A model generated the notes under the pieces. It was given only the letters and a program-made list of their open reading frames with translations, was not told the DNA's origin and did no database searches. A stretch of DNA of 64,000 nucleotides from a virus (taxonomy: Duplodnaviria > Caudoviricetes). The stretch's first letter is position 1; every line of letters starts with the position of its first letter. The stretch covers positions 207 through 64,206 of the IMG/VR virus record IMGVR_UViG_3300033074_001459, one strand, 5' to 3'. Both the position numbers and the translations under genes were made by a program. Positions 3,077 to 34,544 of the stretch are shown one piece after another.

Positions 3077-6000
3077 CCCCCAGGCCGCAGAACTATTGAT
3101 GATGCCTGAGAAGAAGGAGGAGCCCCCCGCTCCTCCTTCCTCTATGCCAGTTCAGGAGGACGCGGTGCCTGATGACGCTGCCGCCTTGCTGGATGTTCCA
3201 GCTCAGCCTGTTCCCTCGAACAACAAAGGTACCGTGGTTATGGACGAATGGACCAAGGCCACGGTGGCTGACTTGCTCAAACCCAAGCAAGAGCAGGTGG
3301 CCAAGTACCCCCAGGCTACGCCATACGACGTAGCGAGAGTTGCCACCGAGTCCGGCATAGGGCTACCCAACGAGCCCGGTCCCCGGGAGCAGCCCACCCT
3401 GCTGCCAGGACGAAAAGACCAGGTTAGCTACGTGCGTCAGTCTGTGTACGGCGGTGCTGACGTGGCCGGGCTGAAGGATGCGCCTTTAGGCGGAGCCTAC
3501 CTCCTACGAAAGTACGCCAACGAGAACGGTCTGGAAGTACTATTCACCAGCGGCGCTCGCCAGAATGGTGGTGACAGCTACCACGATTTCGCCGAGGCTG
3601 TAGACGTGCGTATTATGAAGCGCGGAAAGTCTGGGCAGCTTTACGCTATGAGCCCAGAGGAGGAAGTGCAGTGGGGGGTCAAGCTGGGCAAGAAGGCCGG
3701 ATGGGCTTCGATGCTCAACGAGATTGGTTTTGACCCCGGTGGGCACAAGACCGGCGACCACTTGCACTTCGCCTGGGGCGTGGAGCGCAACCTGAAAGGC
3801 GACCCTAGTCACCACCTTCTGAATGAGCGATACCCGGAAGATGCCAACTATCTGAAGATGAACCCCAGCGCCAAGCTGGCCCCGGCTGGTGACAAGAACC
3901 GCAGCCGTATACCGGCTATGGCCGAAGTCATCGCTAAGGCCGAGGGGCTCGACCCGGACATCTTCGTCAGAATGGTGCAAGCAGAGTCTAACTTCGACCC
4001 GGCAGCAGTCTCCTCAGTGGGGGCTACCGGTCTGGTTCAGATGATGCCAGACACGGTCAAGGAAGTAGCCGCTCAGCTAGGGGTATCCCCCGAGGAGTAT
4101 TACGCTAGCCCCCACATGCAGCTCAAGTTCGGGGCTCAGTATCTCAAGACCCAGCTCAAAGCCAACGGCGGAAACTACGCCAGGGCGCTGGCTGCCTATA
4201 ACGCAGGTCCCGGTGCTCTGGACGAGTTCAAGAAGGGCAAAGAGATTTACGCCGAGACTCGGAACTACGTCAAGAATATCCTTGGCGATGTTCCTGATTC
4301 GGGGATAGCCAGCGAGCAGGATGCGATTGCAGCCATTGTGAATGGTACCGGCCGCACCCTGGACCCGGACCACGAGAAGAAAGCCGTCCAGCACCTGAGC
4401 AACGGAGTCAAATCAGAGTCCGAGGGGTTCCTCTCTCGACTCTGGGAGTACGGAGAGAATGCGCTCAGTAAGATTCCGGGTATGCAAGGGGCCGCCCTTG
4501 CTTCAGAAGCATCTCGTAAGGGCTCTTTGGAAGCAGTCATCGAAGACCCATCGTCCAGATATCGCAAGCAGATAGCCGATGTATCGGATTTTGCCGGTCT
4601 GGGAATGGGGCTTGACCATTTCCTTCCCTGGTTCCAAGAGAAGCTAGAAACCCGAGAGTCTCAAAAGGCCGAGGTGGCTGACCACAATCTGTTCGACCAG
4701 GTATTCGGAGAGAACGGAGCCGTCCAGCGCAACATCCCGTCCTTGATTGGGATGTACGTAGGTGGCGGAGTAATACACAAAGCCCTCAAAGGGCTGCCTA
4801 TATTCTCGGCTGCAGGCAAGGGCACGGCAAGCGCACTGGATACCCTGGCCTCCAAGTCTGCCAACCCTATGATTACCAACCTGCGTGCTATGACCGCAGG
4901 AGGGGCTGGTAGTCAGACGGCTAAGTTCACAGCCGATTTGCTGGAAAGCTCTGCAGTAGGGGCTACAATGATGGGAGTCAGCGGAGCTGTAGACTGGCTC
5001 ACCACCGAAGGGAATGACCCCATCTCAGACCCTGCGGGTTTGGCCAAGGCAGTGGTGGCCCATAGCGCCATAGGCGGAGGGTTGGGCATATTCTTGGGCA
5101 CGTCCTTGCCTATGTTGGGGGCTACCCTTCTCAACACCGCCGGTAATCTGGCTGGTAAGTCGCCTATGGCCAACAACCTGATAGGGGCTATAAGCGAATT
5201 CTACCAAGGTGCTAGCACAATGCAGCGGGCGTCTATGCGTACCATTGCAGGGGCCGGACTGGGCGGAGCCCTTGGAGCCGCTTCTGATATGCTGGGAATA
5301 ACGTCCACCGTATTTGGAGAGGACTCAGGCAACTTGGGTCTTACGGCAGGTACAGGAATAGGCGGAGCTGCTGGGCTCGGCGTTGTCCCAGTCTTGTCCA
5401 AGGTTATGAATTGGAGCGGCCTGTCCAAAAAGCTGGCCGATTCTCCTATGGGCAAAGCTGCCGCAGAGTACGCCGGTAAGGTTGTAGACAATCTGAACAC
5501 GGCGCAACTCCGGGCTATGACCAAAGACATTCTGGATTCGACTGACCAGGCTATGGACCTGAGTTACCGTGACCGTACGTTCCGTATGGCCAACGGCGCA
5601 GACCTGATGCTGACCAAGTCCTTGGAGTCTCTCAAGGGCAACATCACGGAATCGGCCAAGAAAGCTACCATAGCTCTGTCCGAGAAGCAGAAGCTGGATA
5701 CCGAATTCCAGACTATGGTGCAGCAGATGGAGGCCGGTGAGAAGTCTATGCCCCAGGCTGTAGACTTCCTGAACTCCAAGCAGCAGTTGGAAGCGGAGTT
5801 CGCCGAACTACAGAAGCAGGGTGCGCAACTGGCTGAACAGGTGAAGAAGGGGCAAGCACCCGGTGCGGCTCCTATCCCCGGCCTGTCTCCAGAAACCCAG
5901 CAAAGCCTGGGAGGTGCGGCTACGCAGGCGCAGCAGATGTCCGCAGCCCAGGTCAGTGGCACGTTGATTCAGGCCAAAATCGCCGAGGTTCAGAATCGTA

Positions 6001-16283: not shown

Positions 16284-16597
16284 AGGGGGCGGGCTATGAC
16301 TGGATTACAGAACCCCTTATCGCCAGGGCCATTAAGCCTCTGGTGCAGGCGATCCAAGATCGCTCGCCCCTCGATCTCCAACGCTATGCCGACAGATTTT
16401 CCTCGTTTACCCAGCTCTCAGGATTACTGGAGAGAATCGACGGAAGAGGTACCGACGAGCGGATCCGAACCCAGGTTCAAGATTACGCGGATCGCATCAG
16501 TGGAGGCGTCGTTATCGAAGCCCCAGACTGGGGAGGAAGTCTCCCTGATGCTTACTTCCATATTGCGGAAAAGTTACGAAAAGATGCTGGACTATAG
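16277..16597 (+). CDS. Start-less reading frame (…DWITEPLIARAIKPL…KDAGL), probable -1 frameshift extension or frame-broken gene
   Basis: Protein-like helical sequence with genome-like codon usage; no start codon with an RBS in this frame; see findings. Confidence 0.5.
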   Translation, partial: FLEGAGYDWITEPLIARAIKPLVQAIQDRSPLDLQRYADRFSSFTQLSGLLERIDGRGTDERIRTQVQDYADRISGGVVIEAPDWGGSLPDAYFHIAEKLRKDAGL

Positions 16598-28322: not shown

Positions 28323-29219
28323 CTATACCTGACCGCGCTTCAACGAGTCCAGGTCATAGTCGTGGAACTGGATGAGAGCCTTTATAGCCCAGCACTGTTT
28401 GAGCATACTCAGGCCCCTGTCGTAGCCTACCTTGTAGTTCTTGGAGAAGGGTCCCTGCTCCTGAGATGCGCCAAACCCAATTACATTTGGCATTTTGGAT
28501 GCAATCTCCAACTCCTTGGAGTTCAGCTCGCCGCGCTCGGCCGGAGTGAGGGACTGCCCGTTCTGCTTCTTCTCCCACGTAAACCAGCGACCCTTGCGGC
28601 TGCTGAGGTTCTCCTCCTCTTCCAGGACGTGGGCGTGAATCAGCTTGATGAGTGAAAGGTCCGCATTCCCTTCGTAGTTTTTGGCGTTCAGTGCCAATAC
28701 GGCTCCCATCATAGCCCGGTCATCAGGGACGTAGACTTTTTTGCTCTCGCCCTTGTCGTTGGTCTGGTCGGCTTCGCTTGCACCCACCAGGATGGGATAC
28801 AGGAACTTGCGGCACTCGTTGGAGGACATCTCGTCCACGCAATTGAGCAGGTCCCGGTCGATCATATCGTCGTCGCTGTACTCTTTGGAGATGTCGTGGA
28901 CAACGTCACAAACCGGACAAGGAGCGGCCAGCTTACCGCTGTCGGTGTACCCCTTGTAAGACTCGGTGCAGAGGATTCGGAAGTAGGACTCCTCTCGCTC
29001 CTTCATAGTCATACTCCAGCGAGAGCCGGTGGCTTCCTTCTGCACCTCGTGGACGGTGTAAATGTGGAACCCTTGAGGGCACTTCTCATCGTTGGCCAGG
29101 AACCGGATACGGTATCGACCGGCAGCGAATTTGTTGCGGTTGGCCCAGGGCCACCGGCTCACTTTCTTACCAAGCGGTTTCTGTTCGTCGATCTTTTTGA
29201 ATAGGTCTGCTACGTTCAT
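28323..29219 (-). CDS. Single-stranded DNA-binding protein (T4 gp32-like)
   Basis: YRIRFL, H...C...CPVC zinc motif; position within the replication/recombination cluster. Confidence 0.6.
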   Translation of the reverse strand: MNVADLFKKIDEQKPLGKKVSRWPWANRNKFAAGRYRIRFLANDEKCPQGFHIYTVHEVQKEATGSRWSMTMKEREESYFRILCTESYKGYTDSGKLAAPCPVCDVVHDISKEYSDDDMIDRDLLNCVDEMSSNECRKFLYPILVGASEADQTNDKGESKKVYVPDDRAMMGAVLALNAKNYEGNADLSLIKLIHAHVLEEEENLSSRKGRWFTWEKKQNGQSLTPAERGELNSKELEIASKMPNVIGFGASQEQGPFSKNYKVGYDRGLSMLKQCWAIKALIQFHDYDLDSLKRGQV

Positions 29220-32769: not shown

Positions 32770-32988
32770 CTAAAAAATCGATTTTTGGGTCAGATCCTCG
32801 GCCTGTCTTACCAGGTAGCAAACAGCGTCAAAGTCCAGAGAATCGTCGCTATTCCACAGTTTCACCAGCCGTCGCAGCAGCTTGAATGCCTCCTGTCTCT
32901 CCCTCAGTAAGGCGTTCACCTGGGTGCTCAGGTTTTGGCTATCCTTCTTCAATCGACGCACAGTTGCAGAAATCTCAGGCGCTTTCAT
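32770..32988 (-). CDS. Hypothetical coiled-coil protein
   Basis: GGAG RBS before ATG 32988. Confidence 0.55.
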   Translation of the reverse strand: MKAPEISATVRRLKKDSQNLSTQVNALLRERQEAFKLLRRLVKLWNSDDSLDFDAVCYLVRQAEDLTQKSIF

Positions 32989-33214
32989 TCTCGTTCTCCG
33001 ATTCACGTAATACTCTGCACAGTCCGTTCATTCGTTTGTCCAAGGCATCTACGTTTTGCGCCACTGGGGCAAGGCAAGCGGACAACGCCCTGAGCATAGG
33101 GGTGTCTGGAAGTTCTTGGATTTGGTGGTCAATGTTGCGCAAGCACTGCTTCAGTTGCGCTATCAGGTGCCGTAGGTTCCCCTCTACTTCGTCGGCCAGC
33201 GGATTGATGTTCAT
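32975..33214 (-). CDS. Hypothetical coiled-coil protein
   Basis: AAAGGG RBS immediately after the ncRNA cassette. Confidence 0.55.
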   Translation of the reverse strand: MNINPLADEVEGNLRHLIAQLKQCLRNIDHQIQELPDTPMLRALSACLAPVAQNVDALDKRMNGLCRVLRESENENESA

Positions 33215-33234: not shown

Positions 33235-33258
33235 AAGTGCCGGTCTTTCCCGGCTGTC
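33235..33258 (-). repeat. 24-bp direct repeat copy 2 (GACAGCCGGGAAAGACCGGCACTT), hairpin
   Basis: Identical to 33440-33463; stem GCCGG/CCGGC with loop GAAAGA. Confidence 0.95.
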
Positions 33259-33262
33259 TGCT

Positions 33263-33352
33263 TGGTGGGACCCTCTCGATTTGAACGAGATCCAGAAGTG
33301 CTGTCCCGAGCCCGTAACTGCCCAGGTCCCTCTGGTTTTTCCTCTAGGTCCC
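33263..33352 (-). ncRNA. tRNA-like RNA B (90 nt, encoded CCA, no D-stem)
   Basis: Acceptor GGGACCT/GGGTCCC-A-CCA; T-arm TCTCG-TTCAAAT-CGAGA; long central arm CCAGAGG/CTTCTGG plus CCTGGGC/GCTCGGG. Confidence 0.8.
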
Positions 33353-33355
33353 GTA

Positions 33356-33435
33356 TGGTGGAGCTTGGCGGGATTCGAACCCGCATTGTGTCCGCCGGTT
33401 TGTCTTCCGTAACCTTCAGAGCCGGCCCAAGCCCC
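33356..33435 (-). ncRNA. tRNA-like RNA A (80 nt, encoded CCA, G3.U70, no D-arm)
   Basis: 8-bp acceptor GGGGCTTG/CAAGCTCC-A-CCA; T-arm GCGGG-TTCGAAT-CCCGC; central helix GCCGG/CCGGC. Confidence 0.8.
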
Positions 33436-33439
33436 GTGT

Positions 33440-33463
33440 AAGTGCCGGTCTTTCCCGGCTGTC
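33440..33463 (-). repeat. 24-bp direct repeat copy 1 (GACAGCCGGGAAAGACCGGCACTT), hairpin
   Basis: Identical to 33235-33258. Confidence 0.95.
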
Positions 33464-33698
33464 AGATACACGTTGGCCTGTTTAGCTGAGCGTCGTTTAC
33501 AGGCTCCAGGGCTATGCTCTCCGGGGGACAAGCCCGGCATACTCAGCAGACCCTACTGCCCGGGTATATCAGCCGAGCAATCGTTTGCGCAGGGACAGTC
33601 TCCACCGCTTGAAGTTGATGAACCCGATTTCAGCACCGGCGGCAGCCAGCCACTGAAACCGGAGCCACCACTCCAGTTCCTCCAGGTATTCAGCCGAA

Positions 33699-34403
33699 TT
33701 AGGGCTGAAAGAATTTGGCGGTCACCTTGGTCCCTGCGTCAATCTTGTAGAGTTCGCAGAACCGAGTGACAGATTCGTCAGACAGCCCTACGCTCTGAAG
33801 CCAGGCAACGAACTTAGGTCCGTCTACCGAGTTAGCCAGACCTCGGCACTTGGTAAGGATCAGCTTGACCCGGTTCACGTCGTGCCCGATGTAACCGGCG
33901 ACAGCTTCAGGGTTGTGGATGTCGATCTCCACTTCCTCTTGCTGTGCTTGCACCTCTACGGTTTCCAGGTTCTTGATGGAGTCGAGAATCTCATCCATCC
34001 TTACCTGAAGGTACTCGAAGATGCTGCGGACAGTCTCCTGGAGGCTATCAATGCGATTCGATAAGCTGTTGTGATTATCGGACAAATGCTCGACAAGACT
34101 GTCGATTCGTGCAGATACTCCTGCCATATCCCCCTGGCCGAAAGTCGGGCCCTGCACTTCGTCGGTAGACGGGTCATCCAGTCCTCCTAATCCGTCGATG
34201 TCATCCAGACCACCGAGGCCCATATCCTCAGCAGCGGGCTTAGTCTCCTTCTTGTCTTTCTTGCCCTTCTTGCTGGTGCCGTTGCTGGCTTCGTTGAGAT
34301 ACTGGTCCAGTTCATTCAGGGCTGCAGGGTCGAGGTTACCCGCCCCCTCCAGGGTGTCCATTGCGTTACCGGCGGGTTTCTGAGTCTTAGGCGCTCGTGG
34401 CAT
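33699..34403 (-). CDS. Hypothetical acidic protein, 234 aa, ending CCC TAA
   Basis: GAAAGGA RBS before ATG 34403; DDIDGLGGLDD low-complexity segment plus coiled coil. Confidence 0.65.
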   Translation of the reverse strand: MPRAPKTQKPAGNAMDTLEGAGNLDPAALNELDQYLNEASNGTSKKGKKDKKETKPAAEDMGLGGLDDIDGLGGLDDPSTDEVQGPTFGQGDMAGVSARIDSLVEHLSDNHNSLSNRIDSLQETVRSIFEYLQVRMDEILDSIKNLETVEVQAQQEEVEIDIHNPEAVAGYIGHDVNRVKLILTKCRGLANSVDGPKFVAWLQSVGLSDESVTRFCELYKIDAGTKVTAKFFQP

Positions 34404-34544
34404 TGTCGATTCCTTTCTTATTTGAAAACAATTCAAGGCGGCTCATATTTAAGTTGCCCCGATTAGCTGGGAGGAAGTTCAGGATACCTGACTTCGGTGA
34501 TACTGAGAATAGGCTGGTAATACTACTAGCTTGATAGGGATAAT

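Follow-up and report, generated by a model that had tools for sequence, protein, structure and literature searches.

An anticodon-less tRNA-like RNA with an alanine-type acceptor in a variable small-RNA slot of a podovirus-like phage

Introduction

What kind of RNA gene has the two ends of an alanine tRNA, or of a tmRNA, and neither an anticodon arm nor a message between them? The question is raised by an 80-nt element, here called RNA A, that is encoded with its CCA on the minus strand at 33356-33435 of the window (the whole stretch of DNA analyzed, 64,000 nt, corresponding to almost all of a 64,206 bp IMG/VR virus record that is complete according to CheckV). An earlier note had likened it to the tRNA-like domain (TLD) of a tmRNA without the mRNA part, and had proposed that it could be charged with alanine and compete for SmpB and EF-Tu or else donate its alanine. 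Here we follow this up by sequence comparison, searches with RNA family models including cmscan, and folding.

The phage, which comes from wastewater and is uncultured, is podovirus-like, with a terminase, a portal-like protein, a major head protein and a 2515-aa ORF corresponding to an internal virion protein with a transglycosylase domain. Its minus-strand replication module includes an SNF2 helicase, a PolA fused to UDG, and RecA-like, DnaB-like and SbcC-like proteins; the PolA has an identity of only 21-24% to its counterparts in cultured phages. RNA A lies in a 484-nt minus-strand gap between a gene of 234/245 aa (33699-34436) and one of 79 aa (32975-33214), in the same orientation as the neighboring genes, and shares this gap with a second tRNA-like RNA (RNA B) and two copies of a short hairpin. 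A G3.U70 pair, together with A73, is sufficient for alanyl-tRNA synthetase (AlaRS), and minihelices carrying G3.U70 are established substrates of the enzyme through the work of Schimmel and co-workers.

Results and Discussion

The 80 letters quoted in the earlier note, which gave no strand, are the exact reverse complement of window positions 33356-33435, and RNA A is read from 33435 to 33356. The 8-bp acceptor with G3.U70, followed by A73 and CCA, can be taken directly from the sequence as had been claimed. Its 5' strand GGGGCUUG (RNA positions 1-8, 33428-33435, with G3 at 33433) pairs with the 3' strand CAAGCUCC (positions 69-76, 33360-33367) through G1-C76, G2-C75, G3.U74, G4-C73, C5-G72, U6-A71, U7-A70 and G8-C69 in the numbering of RNA A, with pair probabilities of 0.995-0.998, and the 3' end is completed by A77, the equivalent of A73, and C78-C79-A80 (33356-33359). 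In tRNA numbering the alanine identity set is complete (G1-C72, G2-C71, G3.U70, G4-C69, A73, CCA), and what the sequence would offer to AlaRS is thus G3.U70 within an acceptor helix, A73 and a free CCA end. The T-arm, GCGGG-UUCGAAU-CCCGC at 33368-33384 (stem G52-G56/C64-C68, loop UUCGAAU), is likewise present and aligns with that of the tmRNA model RF00023 with a posterior probability of about 1. An internal hairpin at 33394-33426, in which GCCGG (10-14) pairs with CCGGC (38-42) with a probability of 0.94 around a 23-nt loop containing GGUUACGG, occupies the place of tmRNA helix 2 or of the tRNA D-arm, and in the stable fold a single nucleotide separates it from the acceptor 5' strand. Between this hairpin and the T-arm lies a 9-nt linker, GGACACAAU (33385-33393). 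The linker opens with the GGAC (43-46) that had been listed among the tmRNA-like features; the tetranucleotide is there, but five nucleotides (ACAAU) keep it from the T-arm, whereas in tmRNA the two adjoin.

The minimum free energy (MFE) fold holds the acceptor, T-arm and GCCGG/CCGGC helices with pair probabilities of 0.94-0.998, and the tRNA-like 8/5 fold suggested before is at most 1.5 kcal/mol from the optimum; the fold energy alone is unremarkable (z -1.56). RNA A has no anticodon arm, and no stop-terminated frame is found inside it, in agreement with the earlier statement that a tag reading frame is lacking.

Infernal aligns both ends of RNA A to RF00023 with 26 bits (E 6e-8 in 3 kb and 3e-10 over the whole 64-kb record), values that establish that the resemblance to tmRNA ends is not due to chance. 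The resemblance is confined to the ends, which lie 30 nt apart, and the score is below the 47-bit cut-off; in a 251-nt search the score is 17.5 bits, against the gathering threshold of 47. Scores with the models for tRNA (RF00005, 19.9 bits, cut-off 29) and tRNA-Sec (RF01852, 21.1 bits, cut-off 47) are below threshold as well, and ARAGORN, run on the whole window, reports 0 tRNA genes and no tmRNA, leaving RNA A uncalled. The mRNA-like domain of tmRNA (resume codon, tag frame, stop) and its pseudoknots are not present in RNA A, and neither is a cloverleaf with D-arm and anticodon arm. With tRNA-Ala RNA A shares the first four acceptor pairs, the discriminator and CCA, and with alanine minihelices the equivalent of the acceptor/T-arm stack; it differs in having no recognizable D-arm, no anticodon arm and a stack of 13 rather than 12 bp. 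That 13-bp (8/5) stack of acceptor and T-stem is all that is shared with bacterial tRNA-Sec, whose long variable arm, 6-bp D-stem and UCA anticodon are missing. Phage tRNA clusters can also contain non-canonical tRNA-like RNAs, such as species 1 and species 2 of T4, and RNA A is like these odd RNAs in occupying a tRNA slot, in being co-oriented and in having tRNA-like ends around a non-tRNA interior. No sequence relationship to RNA A was detected, either for RNAs of the T4 species 1/2 type or for odd RNAs associated with the leader hairpin described below.

Three pattern scans for homologues in IMG/VR and JGI metagenomes found none. An acceptor-anchored pattern had no match in IMG/VR, the 27-nt 3' half of RNA A had no match in JGI metagenomes, and a pattern joining the leader hairpin to GGGGC...CTCCACCA retrieved only a canonical tRNA-Ala from metagenomes. 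With no homologue found, neither the structure of RNA A, its G3.U70 included, nor its function draws support from covariation or conservation. Further tRNA-like copies were also sought within the window, where GGTTCGAATCC, with one mismatch allowed, matches at 16461 and 52135; both sites are coding and not tRNA-like, and were rejected.

The closest precedent is the 'TLD only' (CDS-less) tmRNA of mycobacteriophage DS6A published by Hudson, Lau and Williams in 2014 (PMC4131195), the gene for which is at 28478-28560 of JN698994 (the fetched stretch ends in CUCCACUA); inhibition of tmRNA by a TLD-like molecule is described as well (PMC4131195). Scanning IMG/VR with a degenerate pattern gave 42 sequences for which ARAGORN makes no tRNA call; that of RNA A is included, and many of the 42 are clear TLD-only RNAs of 72-99 nt. 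Against RF00023 the DS6A RNA scores 43.2 bits and four of these unannotated IMG/VR mini-tmRNAs (L126, L134, L145 and L152, the last at 580-660) 61-62.3 bits, placing RNA A some 35 bits under typical TLD-only RNAs. In an alignment of 15 IMG/VR sequences with that of DS6A the acceptor 5' strand is followed in all 16 by a D-loop analogue, GA..GG(U/A)UU(C/A)GAC, and helix 2 runs directly into GGAC and then the T-arm. RNA A does contain CCGGC-GGAC, with the additional ACAAU noted above before the T-arm. Where the conserved D-loop analogue would be expected RNA A has GGGCCGGCUCUGAA, which is helix-paired in the MFE fold, and the analogue is absent or unrecognizable. Established structural work has identified this element of the TLD as the main contact to SmpB, and its absence makes competition for SmpB the weakest part of the earlier reading.

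The description of RNA A as a tmRNA tRNA-like domain without its mRNA part therefore holds in general plan, and has the DS6A RNA as precedent, but fails on the score (26 bits vs 43-62) and on the missing D-loop analogue. Like the DS6A type, RNA A is phage-borne, about 80 nt long and alanine-like in its GGGG... acceptor, G3.U70 and A73 (CCA is encoded in RNA A and in the IMG/VR mini-tmRNAs), with a tRNA-type T-arm, one closing helix in place of the mRNA/pseudoknot domain, no anticodon arm and no tag frame. Unlike that type, it has no recognizable GA..GGaUUCGAC, five nucleotides between GGAC and the T-arm, an acceptor of 8 bp and a 3' linker of 9 nt. From these sequence features we place RNA A outside the phage TLD-only mini-tmRNAs proper, as a divergent variant of their kind. 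Anticodon-less tRNA mimics of alanine type are already known in phages through the single publication on DS6A, and RNA A is a further variant.

RNA B (33263-33352, minus strand) begins 3 nt after RNA A and has a similarly non-canonical tRNA-like form, GGGACCU...GGGUCCC-ACCA, with a 7-bp acceptor, G3-C70, A73 and the T-arm UCUCG-UUCAAAU-CGAGA. Its interior consists of a 10-nt single-stranded stretch and a long interrupted helix, with no D-arm; the fold has a z of -2.94, no Rfam family matches, and an RNA B pattern has no match in IMG/VR. The apical loops of RNA A and RNA B have the heptamer GUUACGG in common; it is present 10 times in the window (7.8 expected), where no special complementary partner site for it was found.

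Both RNAs are framed by a perfect 24-nt direct repeat (33463-33440 and 33258-33235) in which (U)GACA precedes GCCGG-GAAAGA-CCGGC, forming what we call the leader hairpin. Copy 1, UGACA-GCCGG-GAAAGA-CCGGC-AC(UU) (33440-33464, minus strand), ends 4 nt (ACAC) before G1 of RNA A; copy 2 (33235-33258, minus strand) follows RNA B by 4 nt and is about 25 nt from the ATG of the 79-aa gene. Upstream of the whole cassette is a non-coding region of 234 nt (33465-33698, minus strand) that is conserved in relatives and could represent either another RNA or a long 3' UTR. Two metatranscriptome contigs, X19 and X20, extend over it, and one of the two, of 192 nt, falls wholly inside.

While PolA peptide patterns returned no close relative from IMG/VR, a protein search with the upstream protein identified three, L358, L357 and L359. 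The last ~115 nt before the cassette, the stretch compared, are nearly identical in L357 and L358, which are relatives at 94-97% identity. The slot is empty in L358 (97% identity), where just one hairpin stands between the same upstream non-coding region and the 79-aa gene. L357 (94% identity, a 64-kb phage) has instead a different, strongly structured insert of ~220 nt (z -2.93) and then one hairpin; L359 (55% identity) shares part of this insert and keeps the exact hairpin. Copy 2, retained in all three, is the resident element before the 79-aa gene. The cargo of L357 and L359 (~200 nt, at 3926-4146 and about 1400-1600, respectively) has no Rfam match; within it are a T-arm-like element and a degenerate version of the hairpin, CCUGG-UGAAGA-CCAGG. 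More distant phages, whose PolA is 60% identical, have tRNA-Arg(UCU) and tRNA-Ile(UAU) in the same slot. A tRNA-like candidate in a further locus (L246) was dropped, with a z of -0.66 and no Rfam match.

The slot varies among near-identical phages as well. A wastewater contig joins 33234 to 33440, with exactly 205 nt missing (one repeat, RNA A and RNA B) and 24 letters at the junction that fit both sides; compared with a near-identical phage, RNA A thus belongs to an indel of 205 nt. In the sludge metatranscriptome contig X19 the hairpin leads directly into a B-like start (GGGACCUAGAGGA...), with no RNA A. Most likely, hairpin copy 1 was acquired together with the A-B cassette, or else a deletion between the two copies gave rise to the empty form. 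RNA A is accessory, and dispensable even within its own phage lineage, as it is absent from the closest relatives (an empty slot in L358, other cargo in L357, a B-like RNA alone in X19). The RNA-library contigs X19 and X20 stop at the hairpin and leave RNA A uncovered, and so are uninformative as to its expression.

The hairpin itself is widespread. More than 120 IMG/VR contigs (a lower bound) contain its 21-nt core, ACAGCCGGGAAAGACCGGCAC; for the full 23-mer, UGACAGCCGGGAAAGACCGGCAC, GTDB species genomes of many phyla yield 108 sites, distributed over 106 stretches (exact 23-nt sites are found at 3001-3033 of L001 and in L003-L122 and L248-L353). Apart from a conserved UG directly before the core, the flanks of different sites are unrelated. 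The hairpin is co-oriented with its neighbors and at 11 of 232 sites ends 1-6 nt before tRNAs called by ARAGORN, which are of many specificities; it also lies within 11 nt upstream of other non-canonical tRNA-like RNAs (L028, L089, L291 and L009/L122), and elsewhere is found within tRNA arrays and ahead of ribosome-binding sites or terminators. Successive RNA genes of L072 are preceded by exact or variant copies. A cultured carrier is Stenotrophomonas phage Pokken (MN062186, 17953-17985), where the hairpin stands ahead of the tRNA cluster. Where the stem deviates, pairing can be kept: of 24 sites of the non-canonical form NGACA-N5-GAAAGA-N5 in the loci that were fetched, 11 pair 5/5, and their stems are of six kinds (chance ~0.7%); such compensatory changes amount to covariation in support of a hairpin. 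When the motif was examined as a possible recombination hot spot, homology breakpoints fell across the hairpin in 81 pairs, as compared with 59 and 61 over neighboring steps of similar size, a tally that was made from pair patterns. In multicopy genomes the motif is located 30-50 nt downstream of a HEARO/IscB guide RNA and upstream of the ORF that follows, with HEARO (RF02033) scoring above threshold in eight loci with the motif.

In the stretches scanned Rfam assigns the hairpin to no family, and its sequence is not printed in the literature searched. Three identities that might be proposed for it were rejected. A sigma-70 promoter with TGACA as the -35 element is not found by a consensus scan, and the 1-6 nt between the hairpin and position 1 of the tRNA leave no room for a -10 element and start site. 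An N4-type hairpin promoter, raised by a match to Pokken, is at odds with a window that has no giant virion RNA polymerase and with the presence of the motif in bacterial IscB loci. A GAAAGA hairpin as the end of the IscB guide RNA was set aside as the sequence in question is a Cas14a sgRNA linker.

Several other RNAs were noted behind the motif. One in L291 (about 2440-2514) is TLD-like, with GGUUUUGAC as D-loop analogue, a T-arm and ACCA; its acceptor begins G1-C72, C2-G71, G3-C70, making it a mini-tmRNA look-alike without alanine identity. Just after the motif in L058, L025, L052, L095 and L103 is an RNA family in which a long conserved stem (ACAACAGG...CUCUUUCCGUUGU), formed by pairing of the 5' and 3' ends, encloses variable inserts; one of these has a T-arm of tRNA type, and the architecture recalls Y RNA/YrlA. 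More remodeled tRNA-like RNAs follow the motif in L017, L009/L096/L122, L028 and L089: the anticodon arm of the L017 RNA seems to be missing while a normal D-arm is kept, in some of this set the anticodon arm is replaced by a 4-bp stem and an SD-like loop (CAGGAGGUAU), and others have an architecture like that of RNA A. In L303 (3750-7800) a HEARO RNA and the hairpin directly adjoin an array of ~30 tRNA genes.

How, then, might RNA A function? It would be transcribed with the minus-strand replication operon, cut by RNase P at G1 and trimmed at its 3' end to CCA, and host AlaRS would then charge it with alanine, a step that the behavior of G3.U70 minihelices renders likely. As it has no anticodon it cannot decode. 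Its most likely role would be that of a competitor or decoy, during infection, for the proteins that handle Ala-tRNA or tmRNA, namely AlaRS, EF-Tu and possibly SmpB with the rescue pathway. For SmpB we infer such titration with low confidence, given that the element contacting SmpB is missing and that the phage encodes no SmpB; no other obvious partner protein was found encoded in the phage either. Donation of alanine, which had also been suggested, was considered with a phage transferase as recipient and rejected, since a Pfam search of 30 ORFs yields no Fem/GNAT-type or other aminoacyl-tRNA-using domain.

We therefore favor, tentatively, a reading in which RNA A is a real accessory phage gene encoding an anticodon-less tRNA mimic of alanine identity, a divergent analogue of the tmRNA tRNA-like domain and of the TLD-only mini-tmRNAs, and a probable competitor or decoy. 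In its favor are the match to tmRNA ends, the intact pairs of acceptor, T-arm and hairpin, and the combination of G3.U70, A73 and CCA, as well as a slot that holds tRNAs in the phages with 60% PolA identity, a leader hairpin that elsewhere precedes tRNAs, the DS6A precedent and the many TLD-only RNAs of IMG/VR. It is weakened by scores below all family cut-offs, by a D-loop analogue that is absent or unrecognizable, by the lack of a homologue, by absence from the closest relatives and by the lack of an obvious phage-encoded partner.

A rival reading is that of a neutral or decaying passenger, the remodeled remnant of a tRNA-Ala or mini-tmRNA gene that was brought to the leader hairpin by recombination and is functionless in this phage. 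That RNA A is a singleton, missing from near-identical phages, under every family threshold and located in a hypervariable slot is all in keeping with such an origin. Random decay normally strikes helices, identity nucleotides and CCA first, yet RNA A retains perfect pairing in all three helices as well as its identity nucleotides and CCA, and the neighboring RNA B has the same minimal architecture. A passenger thus strikes us as a serious but doubtful alternative.

A different possibility is that RNA A and RNA B are processing punctuation only, handles for RNase P and 3' processing that separate the 234-aa gene from the replication genes by cleavage of the long minus-strand transcript, with the downstream mRNA starting at a protective hairpin and aminoacylation irrelevant. 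Both RNAs retain exactly what RNase P needs, an acceptor/T-arm stack and RCCA, and are otherwise unrelated hairpins; the G3-C70 pair of RNA B means that alanine identity is not common to the two; and copy 2 of the hairpin is suitably placed between RNA B and the next start codon. Against this, the relative with the empty slot expresses the same operon without either RNA, and the complete AlaRS identity set of RNA A would have to be coincidence or inheritance. We consider punctuation unlikely.

It is more unlikely still that RNA A is a true TLD-only RNA of DS6A type that binds SmpB and blocks trans-translation. Such an RNA would adopt a TLD-like fold, with GGCUCUGAA as D-loop analogue and GGUU/AACC as helix 2, and MAFFT indeed places CGGCUCUGAAGG under the UGGUUUCGACGG of the family with 7 of 12 positions identical (by hand count); GGAC is present, and cmscan prefers tmRNA to tRNA (26 vs 19.9 bits). 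This fold is, however, less stable than the optimum by 7 kcal/mol, with a helix pair probability of 0.04, and would contain 8 extra nucleotides between helix 2 and the T-arm in addition to the extra acceptor pair, and 26 bits compares poorly with the 43-62 of members. Finally, the 3' end of ssrA, the tmRNA gene, is a common phage attachment site and the 3' half of RNA A is tmRNA-like, but an origin as a fragment of host ssrA duplicated by prophage integration is so improbable as to be effectively refuted by the anatomy of RNA A, in which both acceptor strands are present and pair, with no integrase nearby, a replication module on all sides, a record that is a complete 64-kb phage genome, and a flanking repeat that is the leader hairpin and not tmRNA sequence.

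Beyond these readings lies a broader one, which we regard as speculative and unlikely as it stands: RNA A and RNA B may be cargo of a hairpin-delimited small-RNA cassette system, in which UGACA-stem-GAAAGA-stem-AC would be a portable leader/junction module, read by a universal host factor, that marks tRNA genes and tRNA mimics and allows their recombinational exchange among unrelated phages. RNA A would then not be a mini-tmRNA but would represent a new class of minihelix effector, charged with alanine and independent of SmpB.

Concluding Remarks

Should RNA A prove to be charged and active, alanine-accepting tRNA mimics devoid of the SmpB-binding core of tmRNA would be among the RNAs that phages deploy, and this would point to a second route against ribosome rescue or to a different target for Ala-minihelices. 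RNA A is also a natural test of how minimal a tmRNA tRNA-like domain can be for AlaRS, EF-Tu and SmpB. Its context may outweigh the RNA itself, with a slot that is empty or filled by other structured RNAs in near-identical phages and by ordinary tRNAs in more distant relatives. The hypervariable RNA slot and the widespread 23-nt hairpin are more unusual than RNA A, and the exact sequence of the hairpin recurs in phages and across many bacterial phyla, which points to a general 'syntax', as yet undescribed, of the small-RNA genes carried by mobile elements.
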